The notes: a model not told the origin generated them from the sequence alone. Positions 32,257 to 50,066 are shown, counted from the first letter of the stretch. The stretch: 64,000 nucleotides of DNA from Bacteroidales bacterium (GCA_036261255.1 DATALD010000012.1:17065-81064); one strand, 5' to 3'. Numbers and translations: made by a program.

Positions 32257-32958
32257 TCAATCCCTAATAAGAAATTTTCCTAATAGATTAACTTCTTCAA
32301 CCGGAACAAGCTTTGCACCGTATTGATTTGTTTTCAATACTGCGAAAGCAGAAGAAAGCATTATTATCGCTATTAGTATTATGAACGCCCGGTTCAATCT
32401 GTATGTCAGTCTAATTTTATAGCCTGCAACATAGACCGAAGTTATAGAAAACTTTGTGATAGACAGATTTATTATCTGCAATATAAGTGCCGTTAATGCC
32501 GTCCGGATCGTCCACTGCAACCAGTATTCGTGCAAGCTAAGCGCTACTGATGCACGTTCATCTATCCCGGTACTCTCCGGATGATAGTAACCCGATGATA
32601 ATACTGCTGCAATAATACCTGAAACAATAAAAAGAAAGACGATCATTGCAAGGTCTCTCTTGAACAGAAATGTATTCAAAAACTGCAAAAAGGCAGCTAT
32701 AACAATAACAAGAATAGTATACAGGAAAATAAGGCGATGGAATGATGGTGATTCATAGAACTTTGTTTTAACATACAACCCTGCTGGCGACAAGTGACCG
32801 ATCTCCTCAATCTTATTGAAAATTATTCCGGTATTGTCAGGAATTGCTTTTTTCAGTGTATCAACATTTTTATCGATTATGTTAACCTGTCTGGGTTGGA
32901 ACAAAGAAAGTGATGCAAGAAATGCGATAAAGATATAGTTCAGGCATTTTCTCATCAT
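32257..32958 (-). CDS. Multi-pass membrane protein, possibly a divergent DUF2231-like domain
   Basis: Signal/TM N-terminus (MMRKCLNY...), four hydrophobic helices, His residues (FHRL, SLHEYW) and YGAKLV. Start moved to 32958. Confidence 0.55.
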   Translation of the reverse strand: MMRKCLNYIFIAFLASLSLFQPRQVNIIDKNVDTLKKAIPDNTGIIFNKIEEIGHLSPAGLYVKTKFYESPSFHRLIFLYTILVIVIAAFLQFLNTFLFKRDLAMIVFLFIVSGIIAAVLSSGYYHPESTGIDERASVALSLHEYWLQWTIRTALTALILQIINLSITKFSITSVYVAGYKIRLTYRLNRAFIILIAIIMLSSAFAVLKTNQYGAKLVPVEEVNLLGKFLIRD

Positions 32959-33070
32959 GCTGAGCTGTGTTAGTGGTGAATAAATTGTTGATAGTTGGTT
33001 GTCACTGATTAAAACAATCTTTGTAGTAAAATTGTTTACTACTCCATTTTCGGCGGAGCTACTGCACTGA

Positions 33071-33118
33071 AAAAAATGTACGTATTCGTACACAGATGCC
33101 CGTTAACGTACATTTTTT
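33071..33118. promoter_or_regulatory. Tandem enhancer (UAS) sites, TGT/TGC-N10-ACA x2
   Basis: TGTACGTATTCGTACA (33077-33092) and TGCCCGTTAACGTACA (33097-33112), flanked by A6/T6. Confidence 0.68.
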
Positions 33119-33168: not shown

Positions 33169-33184
33169 TGGCATGCCAATTGAC
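33169..33184 (+). promoter_or_regulatory. sigma54 promoter of the exporter operon
   Basis: TGGCATG-CCAA-TTGAC. Confidence 0.65.
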
Positions 33185-33210: not shown

Positions 33211-34476
33211 ATGGATAACGTGTTGGACAGAATGGACAGAGAGATTTCACCTGAAAAGTTAAAAAGGCGTAAGATTTTCAAAATTTTAATATCAGGCTCT
33301 GTACTTATTATGATCATTGTTGCCTGGACCCTCATCTATGGATTTATTAAACCCGATCTAAAAAGATCCGAAATAAAAACAGCTATTGTTGAGCGTGGTG
33401 ATGTTTATTCAAGCATCACTGCATCGGGCATTGTTGAGGCCGAATACATGAACACTCTTCTTGCGCCTTTCTCCGCGAAGATTATAAAGATCAGAAAACC
33501 TTCAGGCAGCAGGGTTCATAAAGGGGATACTATTCTAATTCTTGACCAGGTTTCTGTTTCAGAAGAATTAAAAAACCTTAAAGATCAGTTAGCGCTTAAC
33601 ATGAATTCATACAGGCAATCGAACCTGAATGTAGATAATGAACAACTGGAGCTTGACTATCAGCTTGAGGTCAAGAAAATGAATATTGCCAACCTTGAGA
33701 CAAGCCTGCACGAAGAGGAACAATTGTTTGCTGTTGGCGGAACATCAGAGGAAAAAATAAGGAATATCAGGCAACAACTCGATCTTGCAAATAAGGAACT
33801 TACACTAGCCCTTAATCAAAATAAGATAAGAATTAATAAAACGGAGGCCGAACTTGAGGCCTTAAACCTGAATATCAGGATAAAGGAGCGCGAACTTGCC
33901 CATGGACAAAAGTTGTATGATGATTCCTGGGTTATTGCTCCCGATGATGGTGTAATTATCAGGATAAACGGAAGGGAAGGACAATCGGTTATTACCGGGC
34001 AGGAAATGGTTACTTTATCTGATCTGTCAACCTATAAACTTACCGGGAAGATTTCAGACTCAAATGCTGACAAGTTACAGACTAACGGGAAAGTGATTGC
34101 TGTTAGTAACAAAATCAGGATAGCTGGTACAATTGGCAATATCAGACCTGAAATAGAGAACGGCATGATCAAATTCGACGTTTTTCTTGAACAGAACAAT
34201 CACCCTGATCTGCATCCTAACCTGAGTATGGAACTCCAGGTTGTGACAGGAGAAAAAGCCGGGGTGCTTAGATTACCTGATGGTCCCTTCTTCGACGGGT
34301 CGAAGCAGATAGATGTTTTTGTTGTCGAAGGGAATAATGCTTATAAAAAGAAGGTTACCACAGGTCTTAACAATTTCGAATATGTTGAGATTGCATCTGG
34401 TCTGGAGGAAGGCGATGAAGTGATCATATCTGATGTTTCCAAAGTCAATCACCTTGAAACTATAAAGATTAAGTGA
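33211..34476 (+). CDS. Efflux periplasmic adaptor (HlyD/MacA-like membrane fusion protein)
   Basis: One N-terminal TM; ITASGIV, GSRVHKGDTIL, coiled coil, VIAPDDGVI, VEIASGLEEGDEVII. Start 33211 or 33232. Confidence 0.92.
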   Translation: MDNVLDRMDREISPEKLKRRKIFKILISGSVLIMIIVAWTLIYGFIKPDLKRSEIKTAIVERGDVYSSITASGIVEAEYMNTLLAPFSAKIIKIRKPSGSRVHKGDTILILDQVSVSEELKNLKDQLALNMNSYRQSNLNVDNEQLELDYQLEVKKMNIANLETSLHEEEQLFAVGGTSEEKIRNIRQQLDLANKELTLALNQNKIRINKTEAELEALNLNIRIKERELAHGQKLYDDSWVIAPDDGVIIRINGREGQSVITGQEMVTLSDLSTYKLTGKISDSNADKLQTNGKVIAVSNKIRIAGTIGNIRPEIENGMIKFDVFLEQNNHPDLHPNLSMELQVVTGEKAGVLRLPDGPFFDGSKQIDVFVVEGNNAYKKKVTTGLNNFEYVEIASGLEEGDEVIISDVSKVNHLETIKIK

Positions 34477-35978
34477 TGGAAAAGGCGACTAATCATAATC
34501 ATTGGGTCATTTTCCTCCTGGTATCATCTATGCTATCAGTTTGTCCTGCAATGCTAAGGGGAGTTGATCCTCCTGATACTCCCCTGTTTTTTACACTGCA
34601 GAATGTAATTGAAATGGCTCTTCAACAATCTCCGGAGTCGAAAAACATAAAGAACAAGCTTGATAATGCTTTCTGGAATTTCAGGAATTATAAAACATCT
34701 TTCAGGCCCAGCTTAAACCTAAGCGGCAGCCTGCCTGATTTTAGAAGTAAAAACACTCCTATAATACAACCTGACGGGTCGGTGCTATTCAGGAATATAA
34801 ACCTTAGCCAGTCGTCAGTATTGTTATCGCTGAACCAGGAGATAGCAGCAACAGGCGCCACGATTTATGCAGCCACTGATCTTGCCCGCATAGACGATTT
34901 TGAAAAGCGTACACTTGACTGGAGCAGCAGTCCTTTCCTTATTGGACTGAAGCAACCTGTCTTCGGTTTTAATAATAAACTCTGGACAAAAAAAATCGAA
35001 CCTCTCAGGTGGGAAGAGTCTCAGAAAAACTATGCCGAAGAAATGGAGCAGGTTGCCTATACTGCCACGCAACTTTTCTTCGAATCTTTAAGGGCTCAGA
35101 CAGATGTTGACCTGTCTGAATCGAACCTTAAAAACAGCCTGTCCAATCTTGAAATAGCAAATGAAAACAGGAAGCTGGGCAAGATCTCACAAAATGATTT
35201 TGACCGTATCAACCTCTCGGTTTTAAATGCAAAAAAAGCGCTGAACAAAGCTTCAATGGAACTTGAAATAGCAGAGTATAACCTAAGATCATACATAGGC
35301 TCTGACCAGCCTGAAAAAACACAGCTTGTGGTTCCTGAAGATGTTCCAAAACTTGTCATTGATATGCAAACAGCATTAGACCAGGCTTCCTCAAACCGTA
35401 AGGAATATCCACAGTTGAAGCGCCGGATGCTTGAAGCTGAACGGAACCTGAAACAGGCCAGGAAGAATAACGGGCTTAATGCCAGTCTCGACATAGTATA
35501 TGGTTTAACCAACACAGGCAAAAAGGTAAGCAACCTGCTTACGAATCCTGAAGTTCAGAAGATAGTCCAGCTTTCATTCAGTATCCCGGTACTTGACTGG
35601 GGACGTTCAGCATCCAGTGTTAAGATGGCTGAGTCGAAGAGTGAGCTAGTAAAATATGAAGTTGACCAGCAAAGCCTGCAGTTTGAAAGAGAGATCATTG
35701 TGCAGGTAGAACAGTTCAGGTTATTGTATGAACAGATTGAAACATCGGAACAAGCCGACAAAGTAGCTGAAGACGGGTATCAGATAGCGCTTAAACAATA
35801 CCAGAACGGAAACCTGGGTATAATAAATCTTAATATTGCATTGCAGGAGAGGGAACAGGCACGGCGAGATTTCATAAATTCACTTGCATCATTCTGGATG
35901 GCTTACTACAAAATAAGGATGTTGACACTATATGATTTTGAAAATAACAGGAGCCTTAAGACAGAGATAAAATATTAA
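34476..35978 (+). CDS. TolC family outer-membrane efflux protein
   Basis: TLQNVIEMALQQSP, FSIPVLDWG and QYQNGNLGIINL. TGATG coupling with the adaptor gene. Confidence 0.92.
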   Translation: MEKATNHNHWVIFLLVSSMLSVCPAMLRGVDPPDTPLFFTLQNVIEMALQQSPESKNIKNKLDNAFWNFRNYKTSFRPSLNLSGSLPDFRSKNTPIIQPDGSVLFRNINLSQSSVLLSLNQEIAATGATIYAATDLARIDDFEKRTLDWSSSPFLIGLKQPVFGFNNKLWTKKIEPLRWEESQKNYAEEMEQVAYTATQLFFESLRAQTDVDLSESNLKNSLSNLEIANENRKLGKISQNDFDRINLSVLNAKKALNKASMELEIAEYNLRSYIGSDQPEKTQLVVPEDVPKLVIDMQTALDQASSNRKEYPQLKRRMLEAERNLKQARKNNGLNASLDIVYGLTNTGKKVSNLLTNPEVQKIVQLSFSIPVLDWGRSASSVKMAESKSELVKYEVDQQSLQFEREIIVQVEQFRLLYEQIETSEQADKVAEDGYQIALKQYQNGNLGIINLNIALQEREQARRDFINSLASFWMAYYKIRMLTLYDFENNRSLKTEIKY

Positions 35979-36008
35979 TACAGTTTTGATTAAGAAAAAG
36001 CCAGTTAA

Positions 36009-37145
36009 ATGATAAAGCATATTCTTATAACAAGTATCAAAGATTTTACAAACAACAAAAGCCTGTTTATTATAAATCTGGTGGCAATTGTATTAGCCTT
36101 AGTATTAATAACAATGGCATCATCATGGATATACCTGAGTCTGAACCCGATATCACCCATTGAGAAAGCTAAATCGTTCTATCAGATAAGGGCTTTTGAT
36201 GAAACCGGGATCCGGCAGTCAGTATCTTTGGAAGATTGTGAAATAATAAACAGGTCAGTAAAAAATGGCTTTGCGTGGTATTATGGACAACTGTTTTCTC
36301 TTGTCACGGTAAATAGAAATAATAATAGAATAGATTATCGGATTACTTCTACTGATGCAAATTTCTGGAAAGCGCTGAATTTCAAATTTCTTAAAGGAGG
36401 ACCTTTTTCTGAGGATCAGTTCAGAAATAAAGAATACGTGGTTGTTATGTCAGAGAGATTTGCCAATGCATATTTTGGATCGACAGACATTCTTGGGATG
36501 AGTTTTATCTACGGGAAACTTAATTTCAAGATAGCGGGGATATTCAGATCTAACCACACTGAAAGTGAGTTTAAATTTGATCTTTATGTACCACACTCTA
36601 TCATCCCGGAGGATGCAGGCAAGGATGTAAATGCTTACTTTTTAATCAATAACAAAGAGGGTAAAAACGAACTGGAATTTTTCCTGAAAAAATATAAGCC
36701 AACAGGAGGTAATCAGATATCTACTGTTCCCTATCTGAGTTCAATGCTTGATATTAAAAATAACCTCCATTTCTGGGCGACATTGTTGATCTCTTTTTTA
36801 CTTCCAATTCTATGTTTTTCGAATATGTTCACGAGGAAGATGGAATTAAAAATACCGGAGATGGCTATTAAACGGGCTTTTGGCGCCTCACGCAAATATG
36901 TCTTTATTAATCTTGTTGCAATTAATGTTTTTTATGTTCTTATAGCCGGTGTATTAGCTATGATGATGGCTCATCCGCTGATCGGCTTTGCTTTTAACCC
37001 GACAGGTTCAGCAAGTATTGAAACGGGTTTTTTGTTCCTGAAGTTTTACATCTCCACAATTCTGCTTTATATAGTATTTGGAGTGGTTTCGGCTATCCAT
37101 CCTGCATGGAAGGTATCCGGGGAATCAATAATTTCTAACGTATAA
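36009..37145 (+). CDS. MacB/FtsX-type ABC permease, single module (class A1)
   Basis: TDANFWKALNFKFLKGGPF; LLPILCFSNM; EMAIKRAFGAS. Confidence 0.87.
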   Translation: MIKHILITSIKDFTNNKSLFIINLVAIVLALVLITMASSWIYLSLNPISPIEKAKSFYQIRAFDETGIRQSVSLEDCEIINRSVKNGFAWYYGQLFSLVTVNRNNNRIDYRITSTDANFWKALNFKFLKGGPFSEDQFRNKEYVVVMSERFANAYFGSTDILGMSFIYGKLNFKIAGIFRSNHTESEFKFDLYVPHSIIPEDAGKDVNAYFLINNKEGKNELEFFLKKYKPTGGNQISTVPYLSSMLDIKNNLHFWATLLISFLLPILCFSNMFTRKMELKIPEMAIKRAFGASRKYVFINLVAINVFYVLIAGVLAMMMAHPLIGFAFNPTGSASIETGFLFLKFYISTILLYIVFGVVSAIHPAWKVSGESIISNV

Positions 37146-37158
37146 ATATTTTCAAAGA

Positions 37159-38316
37159 ATGAATTTCTATCTCTCAAGATTCTTAAGAAATAAGTCCCGG
37201 TATTTAGCAATGATGTTGATTATTGGCTGTGTATATTTTGCCATGCATATTCTTTTTATGCAGTTGCCTGATTTATATAAAGAATTCAATCCAGTATATA
37301 CATTCAATATTGAGAATGTTTATGAATTAAGAACAATGACAAGCAGTCACTCCCTTCTAGGAATTGATGATAATGTTGGGGCTGAAATAAAATTCAATGA
37401 TGATCTTGTCAATGATCTGGAAAATATTGAAGGAATTAATTCAGTTTGCCTTTGTGATGTTTTTGAACCAATGTCTGAGATTTATGGATGTATCTCCCTT
37501 AACGACTCAATTCAGAATTTTATTCTCTATGGTCTTGGTGAGGGGTTTGAAGATGTCCTGAAATTGAAGATTACTAAAAATGATAATAGATTTTCAACCA
37601 ATCCTGAAATATATATTGAATCGACACTTGCTGAAAGGCTTAATGAAGCAGGTTTCAGAGGCAATAAAATTGAAGTCGGAGAAGAAAAAAACAGATATGA
37701 TATTAACGGGACATTTAACCCGCTTGGTATTAATGCCCGTCGGAAAGGCGAACTTTTTGCAGGGATTCAGAAGATAAAAGAATCCGGGAGGATCTTATTC
37801 CGGCTAATCCCGGGAACTGATATTAAGGATGTAGAGAATTCAATCTACAGGTTATTGACAACAAGGTATAATGCTGATAAAAATGCTTTCAGTTACGGTC
37901 CCTTATTCCTGTCAGGAAAGGAAGATTGGTTCGAAAATAAGAACCAGGTTGTGGCAATGTTTATAATTGCAATAATATGCCTGCTTTACATTATGCTCTC
38001 ATTACTTGGTCTTTATTGGAATGAAACAAAGAACCGGAACGTTGAGATTGGCATTATGCGTGCAATTGGGTTTACAAAATGGCAGGTATTCGGAATGGTA
38101 ATAAAAGAAGCTACAATAATTTCTGTTGTTGCTATTATTATTTCTGTAATCCTGATAATTAATTCTTTCCCAAAGGATTTAGAGTCGACAAGGACATTCA
38201 TTTTATCAATATTCGTGAATTCGGCGATCTTACTTGGTATTGTCTGGCTTTCTGTAATTATTCCGGCAGTAAAATCAAGCATGGTTGAGCCGGCACAAGC
38301 TTTATCTGAAGAATAA
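37159..38316 (+). CDS. MacB/FtsX-type ABC permease, single module (class B1)
   Basis: LLGLYW; EIGIMRAIGF; C-terminal EPAQALSEE. Confidence 0.87.
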   Translation: MNFYLSRFLRNKSRYLAMMLIIGCVYFAMHILFMQLPDLYKEFNPVYTFNIENVYELRTMTSSHSLLGIDDNVGAEIKFNDDLVNDLENIEGINSVCLCDVFEPMSEIYGCISLNDSIQNFILYGLGEGFEDVLKLKITKNDNRFSTNPEIYIESTLAERLNEAGFRGNKIEVGEEKNRYDINGTFNPLGINARRKGELFAGIQKIKESGRILFRLIPGTDIKDVENSIYRLLTTRYNADKNAFSYGPLFLSGKEDWFENKNQVVAMFIIAIICLLYIMLSLLGLYWNETKNRNVEIGIMRAIGFTKWQVFGMVIKEATIISVVAIIISVILIINSFPKDLESTRTFILSIFVNSAILLGIVWLSVIIPAVKSSMVEPAQALSEE

Positions 38317-38351
38317 ACAATGAAATTAAAAAAGTTATAACCATAAGTAAA

Positions 38352-39506
38352 ATGATTTTAAACTACCTGAAAACATTATTCCTATCCATAAAGCGGCAAA
38401 AAGGCATTATGTTCCTGAATTTTACTGTGCTGGTAGTTTCGATGATAATTCTGACAATTATTATAAGCGCTTTCAATGAAATGATCTTCACTCCTCATTA
38501 TGAGACTAATGGCGAAAAGCTGTACTTTCTTGAGAACCCTGAGAACAGATCTCCCCGTGATTTTTCAATTAATGAAGAACAACAATTGTTAAAGGTTGAT
38601 GCCCCTGTGAACTGGTGTCTGTTGTCATCCTCTGTGTTCTCATTTCATCCTTCCAAAAAAGGTGTTCTGAAGGATTTTGAGGGACATTATGCCAATGAAA
38701 ACTATCTGAAAATTCTTGATCTCGATTTTATAAGAGGTGAACGATATTCACAAAAACAAATAGAAAATGGACAAAGGGTTATCCTTATCAGTGAAACCGT
38801 TGCTGAATTCATCTTTGAATCAACCGATGTTATCGGAAGAGAAGTCGTAGTATTCAATATGCCGTATAAGGTAGTTGGAGTATTCAAAAACATGTCGCGG
38901 ATAGCCGGTACAACAGCAGTAGCTTTTTTGCCTGCAGAGTTCAATACATGGGATAGAATGAATTGGAATATTGCAGTTACAAACGATGAATTGGACAAAG
39001 ACATCCTGGAAAAAACATTCAACAAACATGCTTCTGAAATTTTTGGTAATGTGGATGGGAGAATAAAACTATTATCAAGAGGCAATCTTGTCCTGAACGA
39101 AATGGGACGATTGCAAATGGGAATTTTTGTAATACTACTCGCCATGGCTCTTCCCGCTTTGTTAATGGTGAATCTTATTATTACACGGATGGAGACAAAG
39201 CTAAACGAGATGGGTATTCGAAAAGCTTTTGGGGCCGACAGGAAAGCTATCTTCTGGCACCTGATCTATGAGAACATAATCTTTACACTAATTGGAGGTA
39301 TAGCTGCCTTACTCATCGGCCAGTTTGTCGTTTCTAACCTGCTGTATGAAGAAGAAAAGTTTACTCTTGTCAGTATGATGAATATACCAGTGTCTACACA
39401 TCTGGTAGTAATGCTGGGTTATATAATCTTTGGATTTATTTCGGGATGGTACCCTTCGAGACTGATTGCAAAAAAGAGTATTGTTACGTCAATTAACAAC
39501 ATCTGA
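38352..39506 (+). CDS. MacB/FtsX-type ABC permease, single module (class A2)
   Basis: ALPALLMVNL; EMGIRKAFGAD; C-terminal SIVTSINNI. Confidence 0.88.
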   Translation: MILNYLKTLFLSIKRQKGIMFLNFTVLVVSMIILTIIISAFNEMIFTPHYETNGEKLYFLENPENRSPRDFSINEEQQLLKVDAPVNWCLLSSSVFSFHPSKKGVLKDFEGHYANENYLKILDLDFIRGERYSQKQIENGQRVILISETVAEFIFESTDVIGREVVVFNMPYKVVGVFKNMSRIAGTTAVAFLPAEFNTWDRMNWNIAVTNDELDKDILEKTFNKHASEIFGNVDGRIKLLSRGNLVLNEMGRLQMGIFVILLAMALPALLMVNLIITRMETKLNEMGIRKAFGADRKAIFWHLIYENIIFTLIGGIAALLIGQFVVSNLLYEEEKFTLVSMMNIPVSTHLVVMLGYIIFGFISGWYPSRLIAKKSIVTSINNI

Positions 39507-39507
39507 A

Positions 39508-40704
39508 ATGAGACTGATCATTTACAAAATACTTCAGCACAAAAGGCGCTATATTTTTCTTCTGATATCACTTGTAGTCATACAGTCGCTCGTTTTTCTG
39601 TCGATGACTTTTATTCAGCATGAAAAGATGAGGCTATTCCCTGAAACAGTGTTCAATATTGAAGATTGTTATAATCTGGAAGTACTATATCCTGGTGATA
39701 AAGCAGATAGTATTGGTTTTAGCACATTTAAGTTCGACGAAGAAAGCCTGGATGTTATCAGGTCAATTGAACATGTAAAACATGCAACTGGTAAATCACC
39801 TTATGTCAGGAAACAAGTGTATGAATCAATGCTCTTTTCTTCGGGAAAAACCGGGAACATTTTTTATACCGAGACTGGCAATGGATTTGAAAAGATACTT
39901 GGTCTGAAATTATTGAAAGGGTCTTTATTCTCACAATCTGAATCAGAGATCAATGAGGCCATAATTACAAAATCACTTGCTGACAGTCTTGGCATTTTTA
40001 ACAAAGAGCTGCCACAGACAATAACTTTAAAGGGAACAAGCAAGAATAATAATGAGGAGATAACATGCTCCATCACAGGGATTGTTGAGGACATTTTTTA
40101 TAAATATTCAGGCAAGAACGTTTGTCCGATTTTTTGCAGGAGAGATACTCAGAAAAATATCGAATTCAGTGGTAGTGTTCTTTTAAAGCTTGATGACAAT
40201 GCCGATATCGATGCAATGGAACTTGAAATTGGTACTTTAATTCAATCATTTACCAAAACGAAGCCTGTTGTTCAACTCATTTCGCTTGATATGGTTGTTA
40301 ATGAACTATGGAATGAACAGAAACGCATGTTTTTAATAATGCTTTCAATCATCCCACTGGTTCTTTTTTATTCTTTCTTCGCTATTTTCGGACTCTTCTG
40401 GAGCGAGATGTCGCATGATAAAGTAAAATATGGGATATTGCGTTCCATCGGCTTTAACCGCTTACAGGTTTTCCTGCTTGGTCTTAAAGAAGCTGTGTTG
40501 TTTTCACTGCTAAGCTTCTTGTTTTCTGGCACCCTTGTTCTTAATATAATCACAATATTCCCTGGCTCACATAGTACGCAGATCATTCTGTCAAATTTGA
40601 CAATATCATTTATAATAATTTTCGTGCTTGTTGTATTGGCCGCCTGTATCCCGGCTTTGAAATTTTCACGGATTAACCCTGTTGAAGCCCTTGCTAACGA
40701 ATAA
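39508..40704 (+). CDS. MacB/FtsX-type ABC permease, single module (class B2)
   Basis: IFGLFW; YGILRSIGF; C-terminal NPVEALANE. Start at MRLII. Confidence 0.87.
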   Translation: MRLIIYKILQHKRRYIFLLISLVVIQSLVFLSMTFIQHEKMRLFPETVFNIEDCYNLEVLYPGDKADSIGFSTFKFDEESLDVIRSIEHVKHATGKSPYVRKQVYESMLFSSGKTGNIFYTETGNGFEKILGLKLLKGSLFSQSESEINEAIITKSLADSLGIFNKELPQTITLKGTSKNNNEEITCSITGIVEDIFYKYSGKNVCPIFCRRDTQKNIEFSGSVLLKLDDNADIDAMELEIGTLIQSFTKTKPVVQLISLDMVVNELWNEQKRMFLIMLSIIPLVLFYSFFAIFGLFWSEMSHDKVKYGILRSIGFNRLQVFLLGLKEAVLFSLLSFLFSGTLVLNIITIFPGSHSTQIILSNLTISFIIIFVLVVLAACIPALKFSRINPVEALANE

Positions 40705-40737
40705 TCTCTTGCTAAATATATCTTAAATAATTTCACT

Positions 40738-41415
40738 ATGAACAACGTAATCACTCTTGAAAACATCACAAAGATCTACTCAACAAAAGAGATCGAAACA
40801 ACTGCATTAAGTAATGTGAACCTTGAAATTAAGAAAGGTGAATTTGTATCGGTAATGGGGCCATCGGGTTGTGGTAAAAGTACAATGCTCAATATCATCG
40901 GGCTTCTTGATGCGCCAACAGAAGGTAGCGTAAAGATTGATGATAGTCCGACCGAGGGTCTTAAAGACAAAGCCCTGTCGCAATTAAGAAACGAAAAAAT
41001 AGGTTTCATATTCCAGAGTTTTCACCTTGTTAATGACCTGCCTGTTATTGATAACGTGGAGTTACCGCTCCTGTACCGGAAAGGAGTATGGGCAGGTGAA
41101 CGCCGCAAAAGAGCCAAGGCATCGCTTGAAAAAGTGGGATTAAGCGCCCGCAGCAAGCATTATCCCAACCAGCTATCAGGTGGACAACGCCAGAGGGTGG
41201 CAATAGCACGCGCAATAATCGGCCAGCCGGATATAATCCTTGCCGATGAACCGACAGGGAACCTCGACAGCAAAATGGGAGCGGAGATAATGGAAATCCT
41301 TCACAGGCTGAACAAGGAAGAGGGAACAACAATCGTCATGGTTACTCATGATGAGCGCCTGGCACAGCAAACTGACCGTATTATCCGCCTGTTCGACGGG
41401 GCAAGGGTGAATTAA
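40738..41415 (+). CDS. ABC transporter ATP-binding protein (LolD/MacB NBD-like)
   Basis: [41 protein letters not shown] and VTHD. Confidence 0.96.
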
Positions 41416-41458
41416 CTTTCAATGTGGAAATGATCCATCAGTCCTAAACAAAATACTA

Positions 41459-42679
41459 ATGATAAAAAATTACCTTAAAGCAGCCATTTATTCAATGTTT
41501 CGCAGGAAATGGTTCTCCCTGCTAACTCTCTTCTCAATCTCCATATCACTGGTTATGGTAACATGCGGGGCATCAATGTGGAACATGATTACCGCTCCGA
41601 TAGCCCCTGAAGTAAACAAGGGACGGACTTTTTTTTTGAATGCTCGGCTGGATTCGAAAAGTGGCGACCGCCAGTTTTCTGATATCTCTCTTATTATGGA
41701 AATTACAAGCGGATTTTTAATTCAGGATGTTTATCGGTTCAAGACTCCTGAACTAACTACCATTTATGAAAAACACGGTGGTTATACCGAGTTTATCCGA
41801 AATAATAAAACAAAAAAAGCTCAGATGATACGGACCGACGCCAATTTTTTTAAGGTTTTTGAATTTGACTTTATTACCGGTAAACCATATTTACAAACCA
41901 ATTCAACGGAAAAAGCTAATACCTTATGTGTCATTTCAAAAGAGCTGGCAGATTACTTTTTCGGTGGTCCAGATTGTCTTGGGCAGGTTATAAATGACCT
42001 AACACATCAATTCAAAGTGGTGGGGGTTGTAACAAAACCGACTTCCCAAACTTCTTTAAAATCAGATATCTATTACCTCGCAAAACCGGATGAAATCAAC
42101 AGGGGAGGATTGTATCAGCATAATGTAGCTTTTCTATGTCACTCAAAACAAGATAAACAAACGCTAGATGCTGAATTGAATAAATACACATTCAACAGCG
42201 ATAAGGGACAAGTTACAATGAGTTCTGATTCACCTGCAATCCAGTACCTCACTGAAAAAATTGACTTTGAAGAAGGAAGCTTGCGTGCATATATTGCTCT
42301 TGGCCTGATTGCATTGATCATTCCCGCCCTGTGTCTGGTTGATATCCTGAAGAATAACCTGAGTCACCGCAACGAGGAACTTGCTATCAGAAGAGCTTTT
42401 GGGGCCCCGCGAAAAAGTATAACCTCATTACTTTTAATTGATAACCTTCTACTGACATTAACCGGAGGGATACTTGGGTTAGGATTTTCATTTCTGTTCT
42501 ATGCCGTATTAAGTGATGATACATGGACAAACCTGTTTTTTGTGTTTTTCAACTGGAGGGCATTTTTCTATTATATAGCTGTATTTCTGATTATCGGAGG
42601 TATCGCCGGTGTTTTGCCTTCTTACAGGATTTCGAAGCAACAGATTGTGAACGCCTTATATGCAATTGAAAATGATTAA
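41459..42679 (+). CDS. MacB/FtsX-type ABC permease, single module (class A3)
   Basis: TDANFFKVFEFDFITGKPY; IIPALCLVDI; ELAIRRAFGAP; QIVNAL. Confidence 0.88.
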   Translation: MIKNYLKAAIYSMFRRKWFSLLTLFSISISLVMVTCGASMWNMITAPIAPEVNKGRTFFLNARLDSKSGDRQFSDISLIMEITSGFLIQDVYRFKTPELTTIYEKHGGYTEFIRNNKTKKAQMIRTDANFFKVFEFDFITGKPYLQTNSTEKANTLCVISKELADYFFGGPDCLGQVINDLTHQFKVVGVVTKPTSQTSLKSDIYYLAKPDEINRGGLYQHNVAFLCHSKQDKQTLDAELNKYTFNSDKGQVTMSSDSPAIQYLTEKIDFEEGSLRAYIALGLIALIIPALCLVDILKNNLSHRNEELAIRRAFGAPRKSITSLLLIDNLLLTLTGGILGLGFSFLFYAVLSDDTWTNLFFVFFNWRAFFYYIAVFLIIGGIAGVLPSYRISKQQIVNALYAIEND

Positions 42680-43880
42680 GCACTTGTATAAACAAATTCT
42701 AAAGAAACGAAGACGTTATTATATATCTGCGATCGTCCTCTTTCTTTCCTTCTTTGCATTTATTGTAATGGTAGGATATATTTATCCCGACATTATAAGG
42801 TCATCTTCATTCAGGCTGCCGGTACCTATAGATAACAGGGTTGAGCTTGTTATTGAATGGAAAACAAAAGAAAAAGAGATTCAAAAGAGCTTAAAAGCCG
42901 GTTTGAAAGAAGGGATTTTAAAACTTAATGGAGTTCAGGCAGCTGATTTTATTATAAATGACCTGGGATCAATACATACAATGCATTCATATGATTTTTC
43001 CCCTGGCAATTCTTACTTCATTTTTTGTGGTGAAAATTTCAGTGAGGTTTTCGATTTGAAATTAGAGCAGGGCAAATGGTTTTCAGAGACAGAAAATATC
43101 TCCGACCTAACTCCTGTTGTAATTACCCGAAATCATGCCGATTACCTTGGAATACAGAATGTCACGTCCAATTCCGTATTTGCCAGTGTAAATCCCAACA
43201 GCCGTAATAATGATAGTATCAGGTACCAGATAACAGGCATTATCGAAAATATGGAAAATATACGAAAAATAGGATCCCGGTCTGAACTTGGGAAAAATAC
43301 TTTTCCGGTATTCTCACCCGAGCCGTTTTATGAGAATACTTTTAATTACGATGAAAGGCTGATCCTGAAAATGAACGATGGGTATAATTTCGAATTATTG
43401 AATACACAGGTTTTGAATTTAATGGAGAAAATGAATGCCAGGGATTATATCCATCAACATAGACTTACTTCATTAAATGATGTTCTAAAGACACAGATTA
43501 ATGAGCATTTTACTGGGTTGCGAATGATATATGCTATTCTACTGATTCTACTGACATACATCTTCGTTGTCCTATTTGGCAATTTCTGGAAGATGACCCA
43601 AAAGCGGACCATTGAGATTGGGATCCGCAGGGCATTAGGCCATTCACGAGGAAAGGTTTTGTTTTACATTCTGGCAGAATCGCTATTGTTTTTTATATCA
43701 ATAATGATTCCTGCTTCATTTGCTTATCTCAATCTTTATAAAATTATTAATATCTCATCTCCTCTGCCAATTTACCTGATCAGCATCGGGATTCTTTTTC
43801 TGGTTGTCATGATAGCAACAATAATTCCTGCAATTTATGCCGGCCGTGTTAATCCTGTTCAGGCTCTTGCCGATGAATGA
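42672..43880 (+). CDS. MacB/FtsX-type ABC permease, single module (class B3)
   Basis: LFGNFW; EIGIRRALGH; C-terminal NPVQALADE. Confidence 0.88.
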   Translation: MIKHLYKQILKKRRRYYISAIVLFLSFFAFIVMVGYIYPDIIRSSSFRLPVPIDNRVELVIEWKTKEKEIQKSLKAGLKEGILKLNGVQAADFIINDLGSIHTMHSYDFSPGNSYFIFCGENFSEVFDLKLEQGKWFSETENISDLTPVVITRNHADYLGIQNVTSNSVFASVNPNSRNNDSIRYQITGIIENMENIRKIGSRSELGKNTFPVFSPEPFYENTFNYDERLILKMNDGYNFELLNTQVLNLMEKMNARDYIHQHRLTSLNDVLKTQINEHFTGLRMIYAILLILLTYIFVVLFGNFWKMTQKRTIEIGIRRALGHSRGKVLFYILAESLLFFISIMIPASFAYLNLYKIINISSPLPIYLISIGILFLVVMIATIIPAIYAGRVNPVQALADE

Positions 43881-43929
43881 AAACCATGTAAGTCAATTAC
43901 TTAAATTATATATGCAATAACAAGACACT

Positions 43930-46368
43930 ATGTTCCGAAATATTCTTCTATCCGCTATTGCAAGCCTTAAACGAAAAAAAACCGCTTCGTTGTTTACGAT
44001 ACTCACAATAAGCCTTGGCATGACAATGATTGTGCTGATGTCATCACTTTATCATTCATATACCGGTAACCTTGGACCATATATTAACCGCGACAGGTGC
44101 CTGTACCTTAGCGATCTTAAGTTTGAAAAAAACGGTCAGGCAGCCGAAAGAATTGGCAATGACAGCAAAAATTCAACAACTGATTTTATAAGAAAGACAC
44201 TCTATGATCTTGATTCAACAGCAATTGTTGGAATGTACGGCCGCGTACATGAGGAGGATTTCGGACCCAGGTACAATCCCTTCAAAATAAAGTATATAGA
44301 AACAGATGTCAATTTCTGGAGAATCCATCATTTTGATTTCCTTGACGGAAAAGCTTTTTCTGCCGAAGATGTAGATAATAAAGAAAAGGTGGCAATCATT
44401 TCAAGGAAGATGGCTGTTCAACTTTTGGGAGATGTACAGGTAGCAGGAAAACTTTTCGATTATGGAGATCAAGGAAAGTTCAGGATAGCCGGAATTATTG
44501 AAGATGTAAATCCACACTTTGAGGTAAGCGCTGACCTTTATCTGCCATATACAATAACTTCGTGGGATGAGAATAATTCTACATCGTTCGATGGCATAGA
44601 TTATTACTATAACAGGGGCGCATATAAAGGCATATTAATGGCTCAGAATAAATCTAATTTTAAATCAATAAGGAACAAGTTTGGTATTACTATTGGTAAA
44701 TTGAATAAAACCGGACAGGTTGAGGAATTCGATAGAGTAAATGCTAAATTAAGAACCCCTTCTAATCAAATTCCTTCGATGATCGGACTGAAAAATGATG
44801 AAACAGGAGCTATTATTTTCATTTCAATGGGAGTCATATTCCTTCTGCTCCCAATAATAATTCTTTCAAACATCAATCTTTACTCATTACGCGACAGGCT
44901 TGAAGAAATTGGTATTAGAAAATCATTTGGAGCCAGACGCCAGCATATTATACGCCAGTTTTTTGTCGAGAATGTTATGGTAACTGCTGTCGGTTGCATT
45001 TTAGCGCTTTTCTTAGGTTATTTTTTAAACCGAATACTGGCTTTCATTCTCTATCGCACAACCGAGATCCCCGGATTTGAATTTAACATATCCCTGTTTT
45101 CCTACCTCTTTCTTGGAACAATTGTATTCGGGATATTAACAGTTGTTATCCCTGTTATTCGCATTTCGAAGGTTCAACCTGTATTGGCCATCAATCACAA
45201 TATTTTCTCAGGGGAAACAAGAATGAAGTTTAAGACCCGGAATAAGGGACTTAAGGTAACTACATCTATTCTGCTTTCGCTGGTTTTATTTATGTGCAGT
45301 TTAATTATGATGATATTTAGTGATTACATATCAGGACTTGGTTATGAAACAAAGAATATTATTAAAATCATAGTGGAAGACAATGATCAGAAAGTATACG
45401 ACGATAATTATAACACCACCCGTTTTGATGGATTCCGTGAGGGTCTTCTGCGAATAGAGGGGGTTGAGAAAGTTTCGAATGTTCTTGAAAATCCACCATT
45501 CTGGATTATTCCGCAATACCAGGATTTTATTGTTAACTCAGAAGAAAAACAAATCAGAACCCTCGAAACCGACAGTGTGTTTTTTGATTTGCTGGAAATC
45601 AAGCCTGTAAAAGGGGTATTATACAGATCAGGCATAATCGAGGGAAATTATTTGCCGGCTATTGCAACTCTGGCAGGAGAAAAGGAATTCTTTGATGGAG
45701 ATGCTGTTGGTAAAACATTTAAACGAAAAAGCGATGGTCAGAACATTAAAATTGTAGGGGTAATTGAAAAATATAAGCATCATTCCTCCGCTTCTCCTTT
45801 GACAGGAATAATGGTTTGCCGTAACCGACCGTCGCGCTCTGTACTAATAAAGTTCAATCCCAATACCAATCTGAATAATTTACGAAACAAAATCAGCGAC
45901 CTTACAAAAAACTGGAAAGGAGGCAATATGCTTCTCTCTGAAAATGATAATATTGACACTGAAAAACAACAGGCACTTAAGTTGAACTATTCTGCCTACT
46001 ATGGAGCTTTGCTTGCTATTTCGTTTCTCTTCCTAAATGCATTTATGGGTTACTTTACACTCACTTACTACAATGTGCTAACCCGGAAAAAAGAGATGGG
46101 GATCCGCAGAGCTTCAGGGGCAAACAGACAACAAATAATCTGGAAAATACTTGCCGAGAACCTTTCAGTAATGCTCATTGGCTCTCTTGTTGCAGTTGCT
46201 ATTATCTGGCAAATATTTCATCTCATCAATTTTAATAAATGGGATATCTTCTGGTCAGGGTACAAGTTGTCTTTGGCTATCGGCCTTGTAATAACTCTGG
46301 GAAGCGCCCTTGTACCTGCAATAAAGGGCTCAATTGTTCAACCTGTTGAGGCCCTGGCAGAAGAATGA
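43930..46368 (+). CDS. Fused two-module MacB/FtsX-type permease (class A4 + class B4)
   Basis: First half: LLPIIILSNI, EIGIRKSFGAR. Second half: EMGIRRASGAN, QPVEALAEE. Confidence 0.88.
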   Translation: MFRNILLSAIASLKRKKTASLFTILTISLGMTMIVLMSSLYHSYTGNLGPYINRDRCLYLSDLKFEKNGQAAERIGNDSKNSTTDFIRKTLYDLDSTAIVGMYGRVHEEDFGPRYNPFKIKYIETDVNFWRIHHFDFLDGKAFSAEDVDNKEKVAIISRKMAVQLLGDVQVAGKLFDYGDQGKFRIAGIIEDVNPHFEVSADLYLPYTITSWDENNSTSFDGIDYYYNRGAYKGILMAQNKSNFKSIRNKFGITIGKLNKTGQVEEFDRVNAKLRTPSNQIPSMIGLKNDETGAIIFISMGVIFLLLPIIILSNINLYSLRDRLEEIGIRKSFGARRQHIIRQFFVENVMVTAVGCILALFLGYFLNRILAFILYRTTEIPGFEFNISLFSYLFLGTIVFGILTVVIPVIRISKVQPVLAINHNIFSGETRMKFKTRNKGLKVTTSILLSLVLFMCSLIMMIFSDYISGLGYETKNIIKIIVEDNDQKVYDDNYNTTRFDGFREGLLRIEGVEKVSNVLENPPFWIIPQYQDFIVNSEEKQIRTLETDSVFFDLLEIKPVKGVLYRSGIIEGNYLPAIATLAGEKEFFDGDAVGKTFKRKSDGQNIKIVGVIEKYKHHSSASPLTGIMVCRNRPSRSVLIKFNPNTNLNNLRNKISDLTKNWKGGNMLLSENDNIDTEKQQALKLNYSAYYGALLAISFLFLNAFMGYFTLTYYNVLTRKKEMGIRRASGANRQQIIWKILAENLSVMLIGSLVAVAIIWQIFHLINFNKWDIFWSGYKLSLAIGLVITLGSALVPAIKGSIVQPVEALAEE

Positions 46369-46457
46369 TGCGTTCTGGTTTTGAAATGAAAGGATGTCGT
46401 AAAACTATTAAATTTGAATACCTTTAATGATGTACAAAATTCTGGCAAAAGCATACA

Positions 46458-47819
46458 ATGATACTCATAATAGATGACGATATTGCCATCCAGGCTTCGC
46501 TGCAATTGCTTCTGAAAGAAAACGGTTACAGGGTTTCAGTGGCAGGCAGGCAGGGTGAAGCTCTAAGTTTGCTGAGATCAGAGAAGATATCTCTTATCCT
46601 TATGGATATGAACCTGTCATCAGAGACTACAGGCCGCGATGGACTTGAGCTGCTCACAGATGTAAAGGAATTCTGGCCACAATTACCTGTGATACTTATC
46701 ACAGGCTGGGGATCGATTGACCTTGCTGTTGAAGGAATGAGGAGGGGAGCATTCGATTTTATTACAAAACCATGGGACAACAACCGGTTATTGCAGGCCA
46801 TGAAAAACGCCCTTACACTTCAGAGCCATGAACGGGGAAATCATCAAACAAGGGAGAACCTCGACAAGCAATATAACTTCAATTCAATAACAGGGCAACA
46901 TCCATCTGTTATTACAGTACTCGAAACAATCGCAAGAATAGCTCCTACGACGGCCCCTGTGATGATTACCGGTGAGAGCGGAACAGGAAAAGAAGTTATT
47001 GCACAGGCTATTCACCTTAACAGTAACCGCAGCAATGGACCATTTATACCGGTAAATCTGGGAGCTATTCCACATTCCCTTTTCGAGAGCGAAATGTTCG
47101 GCTACAAACGCGGGGCTTTTACAGATGCTAAAACTGATAAGCCGGGTAAGTTCGAACATGCAAATGGGGGAACTCTTTTTCTAGATGAAATAGGTGAACT
47201 GGATCTGAATTCACAGGTAAAACTGCTCAGGGCTTTGCAGGAAAATAAAATTGAAAGGATAGGAGATACCGGGAGTACGACTGTTGATGTGCGTATTGTA
47301 TGTGCAACAAACAGGAAAATACATGAAATGGTTGAAAACGGTACTTTTCGAGAGGATCTTTATTACCGCATTAACCTGATAAATATTGAATTACCACCTC
47401 TGCGCGAAAGGGCCTCCGACATACCTTTACTCACCGGCTTTTTTCTTGATATTTTCAGAAAACAATATGACAAACCGGCTCTCTCAGTTACAAATGAAGG
47501 TATAAAATACCTGTCGGAATTGATTTTCCCGGGAAACATCAGGGAATTGAAAAATGTACTGGAGCGGGCAGCGCTAATTTCTTCAACTGGTATTTTAGGA
47601 AAAGAGGATTTCATTTCATCCGCAGGTCATACAAACAAAGCCAATCCCGCTGTTAGCCTGCCCGAACCTGGCAGCATGACTATTGAAGAAATGGAAGAAA
47701 CAATGGTGCGAAAAGCGCTTGAGAAATTTAACAACAACATCTCTAAAGCTTCAAAGAGCCTTGGCTTAACCCGGCAGATGCTATACAGGCGAATTGAAAA
47801 GTACAACATAAAACTCTGA
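46458..47819 (+). CDS. sigma54-dependent response regulator (NtrC family bEBP)
   Basis: LIIDDD, LMDMN, GESGTGKE, ESEMFGYKRGAFTDA, LFLDEIGE, FREDLYYR, FPGNIREL and a Fis-type HTH. Confidence 0.95.
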   Translation: MILIIDDDIAIQASLQLLLKENGYRVSVAGRQGEALSLLRSEKISLILMDMNLSSETTGRDGLELLTDVKEFWPQLPVILITGWGSIDLAVEGMRRGAFDFITKPWDNNRLLQAMKNALTLQSHERGNHQTRENLDKQYNFNSITGQHPSVITVLETIARIAPTTAPVMITGESGTGKEVIAQAIHLNSNRSNGPFIPVNLGAIPHSLFESEMFGYKRGAFTDAKTDKPGKFEHANGGTLFLDEIGELDLNSQVKLLRALQENKIERIGDTGSTTVDVRIVCATNRKIHEMVENGTFREDLYYRINLINIELPPLRERASDIPLLTGFFLDIFRKQYDKPALSVTNEGIKYLSELIFPGNIRELKNVLERAALISSTGILGKEDFISSAGHTNKANPAVSLPEPGSMTIEEMEETMVRKALEKFNNNISKASKSLGLTRQMLYRRIEKYNIKL

Positions 47820-47821
47820 TT

Positions 47822-49117
47822 ATGCGGTTCAGGACGAAGCTACTATTATACATCATTGGTCTTAACCTTTTGCTGGTCTGCTTGTCTGCACATTTCCTCA
47901 ATACCAACATAAAGCTGTTCATGGCTCTTGAGGTTGTAATAGTGACTGCAATTATTACCGGACTCATTCTCTTCCGCCAGTATTCCGGAACTATGGACCT
48001 GATAGCTTCAGGAATCGAAAGCCTTAAAGACCAGGACTTCAGTATCAGGCTGAAACCTGTTAAAAACCGTGAGTTTAATGCATTTATAAGTGTTTACAAT
48101 AAGATGCTGGATCAGCTAAGAAAAGAACGTATAGCATTTTCAGAGAAAAGTTATTTGATCAATAAGTTGATGGATGCATCACCAACGGGGATACTGATCT
48201 TCGACTTTGATGATCATCTTAGCAGCCTTAATCCCGCTGCTGCCAGGTTTTTCGGGTTTATTGAAAAAGATATAAAAAACTTAAGTTTTAAAGATTTATC
48301 GCTTAAACTCGGCGGTATGCTGGATAAATGTTCAACATCGAACAATTATATTTTCTATAAAAACGGGAGTGAAGCTTACAGGATACAGAATGGTTTTTTT
48401 GTCGATCGCGGATTTGATACACGATTCATCCTGGTAGATGAGCTTACACATGAGATTTATAAAATGGAGAAGCAAGCTTATGGCAAGGTAATCCGGATGA
48501 TGAGTCATGAAATAAATAACTCTATTGGCGCTGTTAATTCCGTATTGCAGACAATCCGGCCCAGATTGGAACAATATGAAGGTTATGCCAAGACAGTCGA
48601 TGCCTGTATAATCCGGAATGAAAATATGAACCGTTTTATGAGCAACCTGGCTGATGTTGTTCGCATACCTGAACCAAAACGAAAAGCAGTTGATCTGAAC
48701 ATTCTTGCGGGAAATACTCTTCTATTGTTCCGCGAACAACACAATTGCCATCCGATCAGTTTCTCCTCTAGTCTTGATATACAACCTGTGATTGTCAACG
48801 TTGATGACTCGCAGATAGAGCAGGTTTTAATGAATGTCCTAAAGAATGCCTGCGAAGCTATTGAGAATGAAGGGACGGTTGAAATTATAACAAAGTCACG
48901 ACCAGCAAAACTCATTGTTCGTAACAACGGCAGAAGAATTGAGGATACTCAACGGGAGAAGCTATTTACACCATTCTATACAACTAAATCGCATGGTCAG
49001 GGAATTGGATTGACACTTACACGTGAGATCCTTTTAAACCATGGTTGCCGGTTTGAGCTCAAAACAAATCCTGTTAATCAATTAACTGAATTTTCTATTA
49101 TTTTCCAGGTTGTATAG
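47822..49117 (+). CDS. Sensor histidine kinase: 2 TM with minimal loop, HAMP/PAS-like domain, HisKA, HATPase
   Basis: MMSHEINNS, QVLMNVLKNACEA, FTPFYTTK and GQGIGLTL. Confidence 0.93.
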   Translation: MRFRTKLLLYIIGLNLLLVCLSAHFLNTNIKLFMALEVVIVTAIITGLILFRQYSGTMDLIASGIESLKDQDFSIRLKPVKNREFNAFISVYNKMLDQLRKERIAFSEKSYLINKLMDASPTGILIFDFDDHLSSLNPAAARFFGFIEKDIKNLSFKDLSLKLGGMLDKCSTSNNYIFYKNGSEAYRIQNGFFVDRGFDTRFILVDELTHEIYKMEKQAYGKVIRMMSHEINNSIGAVNSVLQTIRPRLEQYEGYAKTVDACIIRNENMNRFMSNLADVVRIPEPKRKAVDLNILAGNTLLLFREQHNCHPISFSSSLDIQPVIVNVDDSQIEQVLMNVLKNACEAIENEGTVEIITKSRPAKLIVRNNGRRIEDTQREKLFTPFYTTKSHGQGIGLTLTREILLNHGCRFELKTNPVNQLTEFSIIFQVV

Positions 49118-49208: not shown

Positions 49209-50066
49209 ATGAAACAGGTTTACAAAATTTTCAACAGAAGTTTTCCAAAAAACTATGTAGTAAGTCATCCACTGACAGGATCACTGATATTTGGCGCTTT
49301 TACGTACCTGTTTGTAATACTATACAGGCCTATGGAGGTCCATGAAGCTCAATCATTCAGCTTTGTGATAACCATTCTTCTCTATTGCATTATCCTTGTT
49401 ATTCCTGTTTTTGGCATTGCAGTCCTGATAAATAAAACTAACTGTTTCTCGGCAGTAAAGAAGTGGACAATTGCAAAAGAGATTTCTTCTGTTGTTTTAA
49501 TCCTGACAATCACAGGCCTCACTACCTATTTTATTGGATTCATTATTGAAGAACCGGCAGAAAGGTGGAATTGGGCAACCTTTTCCAATGCCTTTTTTAC
49601 CGCTTTCCTTGTTGGTTTTGTGCCTCTTCTTATTTCTACATTTCTGAATGCAAGATTTCTTTTTGCTCCTGCTATAAATGAAGAAACAAATGCACCCGTA
49701 AACAAGGAAGGTGAAGAACTGATCCATATCGAGTCAAAATTAAAGAAGGAAGAGCTCAGCTTTTTACCGTCACAATTCATCTATGCAGAATCTGATGGTA
49801 ATTATGTTACGTTTCATCTTGATAACCAGGGTAAATCAAAGGAGGTAATGATACGTAATTCTATCCACAACATTGAACAACAGCTGACAGGAATCCCAAT
49901 CTTCATCCGAATTCACAGGTCTTTTATAGTAAATGTAACAAAAGTTAAATCAAGACGCGGTAATAGTCTGGGATACAGGCTTAAACTTTTTGGGGCGGAT
50001 GAAGAAGTACCTGTATCCAGACAAAACATCAATAAGATTGATAGTTTCCTGAAACATCGACCCTGA
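49209..50066 (+). CDS. Membrane-bound LytTR family transcriptional regulator
   Basis: Four N-terminal TM helices; YAESDGNY and FIRIHRSFIVN...VPVSR (LytTR domain). Confidence 0.9.
   Translation: MKQVYKIFNRSFPKNYVVSHPLTGSLIFGAFTYLFVILYRPMEVHEAQSFSFVITILLYCIILVIPVFGIAVLINKTNCFSAVKKWTIAKEISSVVLILTITGLTTYFIGFIIEEPAERWNWATFSNAFFTAFLVGFVPLLISTFLNARFLFAPAINEETNAPVNKEGEELIHIESKLKKEELSFLPSQFIYAESDGNYVTFHLDNQGKSKEVMIRNSIHNIEQQLTGIPIFIRIHRSFIVNVTKVKSRRGNSLGYRLKLFGADEEVPVSRQNINKIDSFLKHRP

Follow-up and report, generated by a model that had tools for sequence, protein, structure and literature searches.

A 64,000-nucleotide stretch of DNA from Bacteroidales bacterium (GCA_036261255.1 DATALD010000012.1:17065-81064; hereafter the window, with positions counted from its first letter) carries at 33.2-49.1 kb an operon that probably encodes an inducible tripartite ATP-binding cassette (ABC) exporter of type VII, MacAB-TolC-like and with a two-part, pseudo-heterodimeric membrane component. 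Eight MacB-like permease modules of two classes, A and B, are encoded together with one ABC ATPase, one periplasmic adaptor and one TolC-like duct. The two classes, the history of their pairing, their topology, their conservation among relatives and the promoter motifs are seen in the sequences themselves, whereas physical A+B heterodimers, a shared ATPase, adaptor and duct, and substrate differences between the units are inferred from them.

In the proposed arrangement, each A module would pair with the B module encoded directly downstream to give an 8-helix unit equivalent to the fused protein A4-B4. The window's operon would then supply four such units, two of them core (A3B3 and A4-B4, present in every relative) and two accessory (A1B1 and A2B2, which vary among relatives). 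Through its two coupling helices each unit would bind two copies of the single ATPase, and it would take its place beneath the adaptor and the TolC-like duct, of which there is one each. The units may therefore be seen as alternative 'heads' on shared machinery, probably differing in substrate range, with envelope-active peptides, xenobiotics and lipid-like molecules as candidate substrates. Expression would start at a sigma54 promoter under the NtrC-type regulator that the operon itself encodes.

The operon consists of co-directional genes, thirteen as counted, with intergenic gaps of at most 90 nt. Gene calls together with Pfam and NCBIfam searches agreed with the gene content, order, coordinates and start codons given in a first-pass annotation, which had been made from the window's sequence. 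The genes are as follows (TM, transmembrane; L015 and similar labels denote loci carrying related operons).

33211-34476, + strand: periplasmic adaptor (membrane fusion protein, MacA/HlyD-like); Pfam HlyD_3, HlyD_2 and HlyD_D23; NCBIfam TIGR01730, 112.8 bits against a cut-off of 94.9
34473-35978, + strand: TolC-like outer-membrane factor; Pfam OEP, 124 bits, two repeats; 4-nt overlap with the adaptor gene
36009-37145, + strand: permease A1 (N-half type) of an accessory pair; Pfam MacB_PCD and FtsX; 4 TM helices; A clade, long branch
37159-38316, + strand: permease B1 (C-half type) of an accessory pair; Pfam FtsX; TIGR03434 positions 675-803; start 13 nt past A1
38352-39506, + strand: permease A2, accessory; A clade; L015 ortholog 72% identical
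39508-40704, + strand: permease B2, accessory; B clade; L015 ortholog 70% identical; ATG 1 nt past the A2 stop
40738-41415, + strand: ABC ATPase (MacB/LolD/DarD-like nucleotide-binding domain, NBD), the operon's only one; Pfam ABC_tran; 225 aa
41459-42679, + strand: permease A3 of a core pair; orthologs in 7 of 7 operons of the pump family
42672-43880, + strand: permease B3 of a core pair; B clade; 8-nt overlap with A3
43930-46368, + strand: fused A4-B4 permease, core; 812 aa; 8 TM helices without linker helices; TIGR03434 positions 8-803, 181.5 bits
46458-47819, + strand: sigma54-dependent response regulator (NtrC type); Pfam Response_reg, Sigma54_activat and HTH_8
47822-49117, + strand: histidine kinase; N-terminal part with two TM helices and ~6 residues between them, then a PAS domain and a catalytic domain; Pfam PAS_8 and HATPase_c

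The permease modules fall into two classes

Hydropathy analysis gave 4 TM helices and a TM1-TM2 loop of 215-255 aa for each module, and 8 TM helices for the fused protein. The FtsX C-terminal domain (PF02687) was matched by all seven permease genes at 35-107 bits, against a gathering cut-off of 25.5. MacB_PCD passed its cut-off in A1-A4 and in B2, fell short of it in B3 (21.7 bits vs 27) and had no match in B1. TIGR03434, an 803-position profile of the duplicated permease, aligned to the A genes over positions ~25-400, to the B genes over ~480-803 and to the fused protein over nearly its whole length; the single genes scored 35-87 bits, each over one half. Pairwise identity was 21-26% within A and 19-24% within B, as compared to 14-20% between A and B.

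A maximum-likelihood tree was built from 88 modules by a quick search, with SH-aLRT values as the sole measure of support. The input comprised the window's eight modules and 39 more from six related operons. To these were added both halves of 14 other fused permeases encoded in this genome, another split pair, found on contig C32, and seven FtsX/MacB genes that stand single and unpaired. All first-of-pair genes (16/16) grouped with all N-halves (24/24) at an SH-aLRT of 96, and all second-of-pair genes (17/17) grouped with all C-halves (24/24) at 94, so that the two clades foreseen in the first-pass annotation were recovered. The seven unpaired genes fell outside both groups. B1 lies in the B clade, where its sister is the Puteibacter gene L017_g1 (41% identity). 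From the TIGR03434 alignment ranges and the tree it follows that class A corresponds to the N-half and class B to the C-half of a duplicated permease; judged by sequence, A+B corresponds to a MacB-type permease with internal duplication and eight helices, in split form. An origin of each A-B pair by local duplication of one gene was rejected because the tree unites all A modules and all B modules.

The motifs first used to separate the classes are present, with one adjustment: the class A motif is properly (R/K)(A/S)FGA, as A2 reads RKAFGA and A4 reads RKSFGA. GxxW is confined to B1-B3, and P(A/V)xALxxE stands at the C-terminus of all four B modules, as had been described. The further remark that the periplasmic domains are highly divergent is only mildly true. 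Their identity is 23% in A and 19% in B, as compared to 27-30% for TM2-4, and everything in these proteins is divergent. All eight modules retain E-x-G/A-I-x-R/K-A/S-x-G just past TM2, the site of the MacB coupling helix (PMC5985334).

A and B modules occur as adjacent pairs

The A and B subtrees mirror each other. Patristic distances correlated at r = 0.925 over 26 pairs, a value reached by 0 of 2000 shuffles of partners within loci, and the adjacent pairing was the best among the 24 pairings possible in the window. Spacing within pairs is tight (A3/B3 -8 nt, an overlap; A2/B2 +1; A1/B1 +13) as compared to 33-49 nt between units, and the 8-nt A3/B3 overlap recurs in 6 of 6 related operons. 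This tight spacing and conserved overlap suggest coupled 1:1 synthesis.

Fusions point the same way. In both subtrees the split A3/B3 clade has the fused Puteibacter protein L017_g5 as its sister, and the clade of the window operon's fused permease sits among split pairs. Fusion, or fission, has therefore occurred more than once, always in A-B order. The use of A4-B4 as a Rosetta stone for A+B pairing gains a second case. The A4-B4 junction is a low-confidence loop of ~10 residues (only 424-427 disordered) without extra helices. Strict alternation, which the first-pass annotation had also claimed, exceeds chance; it is seen in the window, where ABABABAB is 1 of 70 possible orders, and in 28 of 28 split pairs across 15 loci, which run A then B, although pairs across loci are not independent events. 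Judged by sequence, the pairs evolve as units, and A+B heterodimers are favoured by the order of the genes, the mirrored trees and the fused proteins.

It is very unlikely, on present evidence, that A joins with A and B with B as homodimers (A2, B2), or that modules combine at will to give up to seven or more transporters, with adjacency reflecting tandem block duplication only. MacB and FtsX are homodimers (PMC5985334), every module has the full architecture of four TM helices and loop, and block duplication alone can yield mirror-tree congruence. The A and B clades, however, are old and are never found alone in the 15 loci, and the nesting of fused A-B among split pairs and the conserved start/stop overlap within pairs also speak against such mixing. 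In addition, the C-terminus of class A is degenerate, whereas class B keeps P(V/A)xALxxE, an asymmetry that fits fixed partners.

The paired units are MacB-like

When a profile of the fused family was compared to solved structures, MacB chains scored best (175 bits), with LolE at 35 and YbbP at 27.5. An AlphaFold (AF2) model of A4-B4 (predicted local distance difference test, pLDDT, 82.7; predicted TM-score, pTM, 0.74) has two alpha/beta periplasmic domains. Foldseek searches with this model returned E. coli YbbP (9ge6) as the best whole-length match, followed by halves of MacB, BceB, LolE and HrtB. As modelled, fused A4-B4 is an 8-TM MacB-like pseudo-dimer. Membership of the MacAB-TolC type is further indicated by the adaptor, which is above the TIGR01730 cut-off, and by the OEP duct, both encoded with the ABC components. 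MacB-like units combined with an adaptor and a duct suggest an exporter of the MacAB-TolC kind and not an extractor of the Lol type. The heterodimers had earlier been called LolCE-like. This description holds for their architecture but not for their sequence, given the gap between the MacB and LolE scores and the lack of any match to the LolC/E models in NCBIfam; the adaptor and duct also indicate efflux and not the release of lipoproteins.

Copy number varies in whole A-B pairs

Congeneric genomes gave no ortholog of the operon, and related operons were therefore taken from metagenome contigs. Orthologs of A3 were found only in a small set of these contigs and in Puteibacter caeruleilacunae, at 34-85% identity. 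The number of units per operon is two in L020 (with remnants of a third), three in L013 and L018, four in L015, L019 and the window, and six in P. caeruleilacunae (L017), where three are split and three fused. Profile searches of 80 more genomes of the same order, one per family, yielded further loci with the same parts: L029 with four split pairs, L032 with two and five loci with one pair each, and contig C32 of the window's own genome holds a one-pair paralog.

Together, 15 loci with 1, 2, 3, 4 or 6 units contain 28 split pairs and 10 fusions, with 0 unpaired or reversed modules. In all 15 the first gene scores far higher with the A than the B profile and the second far higher with the B than the A profile. 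Variation in copy number by whole A-B pairs, as predicted beforehand, is thus what the 15 loci display, and the odd or non-alternating arrangements looked for in them did not occur. By tree orthology groups, the conserved core consists of the ATPase, A3B3, the fused unit, the regulator and the kinase. The accessory pairs are variable and mostly lie between the duct gene and the ATPase gene; the window's A1B1 and A2B2 belong to different orthology groups from the accessory pairs of L013 or L019.

That the extra pairs are redundant or decaying paralogs without distinct specificity is highly improbable. Pairs have been gained and lost between relatives, a pair's slot in L020 holds remnants of 140 and 142 aa, and an A gene in L035 has an in-frame TAG. 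All eight modules of the window, however, are intact. A2 and B2 are 70-72% identical to their L015 orthologs as compared to ~20-25% to their paralogs, and divergence this old in frames that are still intact speaks for roles that differ and have been maintained.

The L020 open reading frames (ORFs) lie at L020:7938-8778, between the duct and ATPase genes, have a weak MacB_PCD match and are probably what is left of a decayed unit. The L035 gene (L035:8571-9791, genome G056) is the A gene of a one-pair operon, cut by the TAG into ORFs of 251 and 144 aa, and its B partner is intact. The paralog on C32 (C32:1134-8282, L022) encodes an adaptor, an ATPase, an A of 423 aa, a B of 385 aa with an overlap of 4 nt, a sigma54 regulator and a PAS kinase, without a duct gene; congeneric genomes carry its orthologs. 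Some relatives have extra genes between the last permease and the regulator: an 874-aa thioredoxin/redoxin-like protein (L017:14982-17606), a DUF6567 protein (L015:14967-15326) and a transglutaminase-like protein (L029:6603-7817).

Proposed sharing of one ATPase, adaptor and duct by several units

Each related operon has one ATPase, one adaptor and one duct, regardless of whether it has one unit or six, and exactly one ATPase was found in 15 of 15 loci. The window's ATPase has its Walker A, Q-loop, LSGGQ, Walker B and H-loop motifs readable in sequence, a full catalytic set. Its best NCBIfam matches are DarD (255 bits) and LolD (241 bits), each under its cut-off. Across related loci the ATPase is 81-92% identical, as compared to 34-78% for the permeases. 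One ATPase for many permeases is a general habit of the window's genome rather than a peculiarity of this operon, the genome having 7 MacB-type ATPases vs 31 permease ORFs. On the basis of the single ATPase, adaptor and duct per operon, the conserved segment past TM2, the conservation of the ATPase and these genome counts, the four units would share one ATPase, adaptor and duct. Gene content also leads us to expect that they differ in substrate specificity. The competition for these parts and the sensing platform put forward in the first-pass annotation would likewise be readings of gene content.

Some units might instead use other ATPases of the genome, or act as duct-less extractors like YbbAP or LolCDE. 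We regard this as improbable, although six further MacB-type ATPases are encoded in the genome, as are several fused permeases that stand as orphans (e.g. window 19235-21628), YbbAP works without TolC (PMC12646458), and one ATPase gene would need to supply eight binding sites. Against it stand the unusual conservation of the ATPase and the fact that every related operon keeps one ATPase, one adaptor and one duct beside its 1-6 units.

Two other permease loci of this genome were noted. Contig C66 (C66:4976-27759, L023/L024) carries ten consecutive same-strand genes for fused MacB-type permeases of ~800 aa, one of them with a split frame (611 + 203 aa). A single ATPase gene (C66:9914-10588) is embedded in the array, and a sigma54 response regulator and a kinase adjoin it in divergent orientation. 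The orphan permease at window 19235-21628 is a fused protein of 797 aa with no MacB-type ATPase within 19 kb.

Candidate promoter elements and the operon's kinase

Two elements were found upstream of the adaptor gene.

33077-33092, + strand: palindrome TGTACGTATTCGTACA, candidate upstream activating sequence for a sigma54 activator
33169-33183, + strand: sigma54-type -24/-12-like element TGGCATgccaaTTGA, with the conserved pattern TGGCA(C/T)-N5-TTGA

The palindrome, of the form TGT(A/C)C-N6-G(T/G)ACA, is present upstream of the adaptor gene in 6 of 6 related loci, ~70-90 bp upstream of the -24/-12-like element. Counted from the ATG of the adaptor gene, TGGCA(C/T)-N5-TTGA lies at -42 to -44 in three loci (the window, L013 and L015) and a variant at -41 in L020; the element is thus found at -41 to -44 in 4 of 6 loci, and in the other two the starts are likely mis-called. 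The window's genome has rpoN, and an activator gene is part of the operon. These features make sigma54 control of the operon likely, in agreement with the first-pass annotation. A scan for sigma70-type promoters and terminators gave counts near chance with a consensus that is unsuited to Bacteroidota.

The kinase has TM helices at residues 7-25 and 32-50 by hydropathy, separated by ~6 residues, and is without a periplasmic sensor domain. Kinases of 12 loci have N-terminal hydrophobic segments at the same positions; in 9 of these kinases two segments exceed the hydropathy threshold, and in the other 3 a single segment does so. By analogy, this layout resembles that of intramembrane-sensing kinases such as BceS, which are transporter-dependent sensors, and may be taken as a lead.

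In one alternative, only the core units (A3B3 and/or A4-B4) pump through the adaptor and duct, and the accessory units are sensors or co-sensors of substrate load for the loop-less kinase, as BceB is for BceS. The two-helix layout with a loop of ~6 residues is common to the loci compared, conservation patterns differ between core and accessory units, and BceAB-BceS complexes exist (8g3a and 8g4c among the Foldseek matches; PMC12646458). Such a division of labour is nonetheless unlikely. Operons with a single pair (C32, L030, L033, L034) have the same type of kinase, which indicates that extra units are not required for sensing; the regulator is of the NtrC type and not the OmpR type of Bce, and the cytoplasmic PAS domain provides an alternative input.

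Weighing of the exporter reading

Several points weigh against an exporter with interchangeable A+B units under sigma54 control. Block duplication of adjacent genes would also give mirror trees and tight spacing without obligate heterodimers, and an operon tabulated in Porphyromonas gingivalis with three permease genes, PG0682-0684, may break the pair rule (PMC12094164). Equal translation of all genes would leave the ATPase 8-fold short, and some units may use other ATPases or idle. No cargo gene conserved across the family, which could give a clue to the substrate, was seen; the extra genes differ among relatives. The -12 element reads TTGA and not the canonical TTGC, and the single -24/-12 match in the window is not above chance.

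A more specific version of the exporter reading would have one ATPase dimer, adaptor and duct shared in turn by obligate A+B heterodimers. Two of these would be core and the rest accessory cassettes swapped between lineages, changing the substrate range, and the kinase would read transporter activity and tune sigma54-dependent expression as in Bce flux sensing. This version is possible but on the doubtful side. The general reading, an inducible tripartite exporter built on paired A and B modules, is the one retained here.

Distribution of the operon and neighbouring genes

No ortholog of the operon was found in the 24 congeneric genomes searched, where the best matches (28-29%) were orthologs of the C32 paralog. 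A contig scan with A3 as a single-protein query also found no relative. In the closest congener, G012 (locus L036), the flanks are syntenic at 58-73% identity (an 894-aa protein, a glyoxalase, a hydrolase and an amine oxidase), and ~10 kb of unrelated genes stand in place of window 33.1-52.6 kb, which holds the operon, a LytTR gene and an outer-membrane protein gene. Syntenic flanks with a replaced interior mark this as a variable region. The operon is an accessory, patchily distributed element. Single genes of the B type are common in general: the B profile is matched by 7546 representative proteins at E <= 1e-30, and among the top 150 matches ~140 are single genes of ~390-410 aa.

Downstream of the kinase gene, window 49209-52580 encodes a membrane-anchored LytTR regulator (285 aa), whose N-terminal half, being hydrophobic, may contain several TM helices, and a TonB-dependent-like barrel protein of 788 aa (OMP_b-brl_3). 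In L018, a 788-aa protein with the same domains as this barrel is encoded just upstream of the adaptor gene. It is possible that the barrel protein is linked to the pump. On the other side, window 32257-33093 (- strand), divergent from the operon, encodes a 278-aa multi-pass membrane protein without a Pfam match; the congener's syntenic homolog is only 31% identical.

Novelty and importance of the pairing rule

The first-pass annotation had presented the pairing logic as new, which overstated the case. The A and B classes are halves of a known duplicated permease, heterodimeric and fused forms have been reviewed (PMC5985334), multi-permease clusters (PMC3914696) and two-permease operons of P. 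gingivalis (PMC12094164) are on record, and the same genome has a 10-permease array. As far as could be found in the literature, three features are undescribed: the strict A-B rule for split pairs, in which genes have fused or come apart repeatedly; the division into core and accessory units; and the association with a kinase without an external sensor domain.

Genomes of Bacteroidota and Acidobacteriota each contain tens of MacB-type 'orphan' permeases, whose role and driving ATPase are a puzzle. The operon family described here is a compact, self-contained case in which gene order fixes the partners, making the sharing of an ATPase, adaptor and duct directly testable. The core-versus-accessory pattern predicts which units set the substrate range, and P. 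caeruleilacunae, a cultured relative with a six-unit version, opens the way to genetics. If sharing is true, a modular principle would be added to type VII ABC exporters, and thousands of two-gene permease pairs labelled merely 'ABC transporter permease' could be better annotated. Group II ECF (energy-coupling factor) importers have shared energising modules, and one engine with many heads would be their exporter counterpart.

Comparison with known systems

Reviews of the MacB family cover homodimeric (MacB, FtsX), heterodimeric (LolCE) and fused (YbbP, BceB) arrangements (PMC5985334). The operon resembles MacAB-TolC in its 4-TM modules, where TM1 and TM2 flank a large periplasmic domain, its MacA-like adaptor and its TolC-like duct. 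MacB, however, is a homodimer with an N-terminal fused NBD, whereas here the NBD is separate, the membrane component would be an A+B pseudo-heterodimer and there are four units in one operon. Assignment to MacB proper was rejected in view of the separate 225-aa NBD and an NF007826 score no higher than 60.7 bits, the cut-off being 966. LolCDE likewise has two side-by-side paralogous 4-TM permeases with a separate ATPase, used there in two copies as proposed here, but Lol has one pair and neither adaptor nor duct. The LolCDE family was rejected as well (LolD TIGR02211 241.1 bits, below 307.75; no match to the LolC/E models).

Fused type VII permeases (YbbP of YbbAP-TesA, BceB, ADOP TIGR03434, DarB) are similar in that pseudo-symmetry arises through duplication of a MacB-like unit. 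Their ATPase:permease stoichiometry is 2:1 (PMC12646458, PMC5985334), and the pseudo-symmetry of YbbP has been solved (PMC12646458). YbbP and BceB differ in having 10 TM helices as compared to 8 in A4-B4, and three of the four units here are split in two genes. A fused permease of the YbbP/BceB type (10 TM, two linker helices) was rejected on the 8 TM helices and the short disordered loop at 424-427, and ADOP on the fused protein's score, 181.5 bits over positions 8-803 against a cut-off of 622.3. BceAB-BceRS of Firmicutes is also unlike this operon, in which the regulator is a sigma54 activator and not OmpR-type, the kinase has a PAS domain and the system is tripartite and Gram-negative.

MacB-like operons of two and three permeases have been tabulated in P. 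gingivalis (PMC12094164), and Psychroflexus torquis has a cluster of ten ADOP paralogs with few ATPases, of unknown function (PMC3914696). Such multi-ADOP clusters of Bacteroidota and Acidobacteriota (e.g. P. torquis genomic island 43) share with this operon many paralogs of a duplicated permease, few ATPases and other transporter genes. All of their permeases are fused, and the split A/B form, the strict order and the core-plus-accessory pattern, undescribed in those clusters, set the present family apart.

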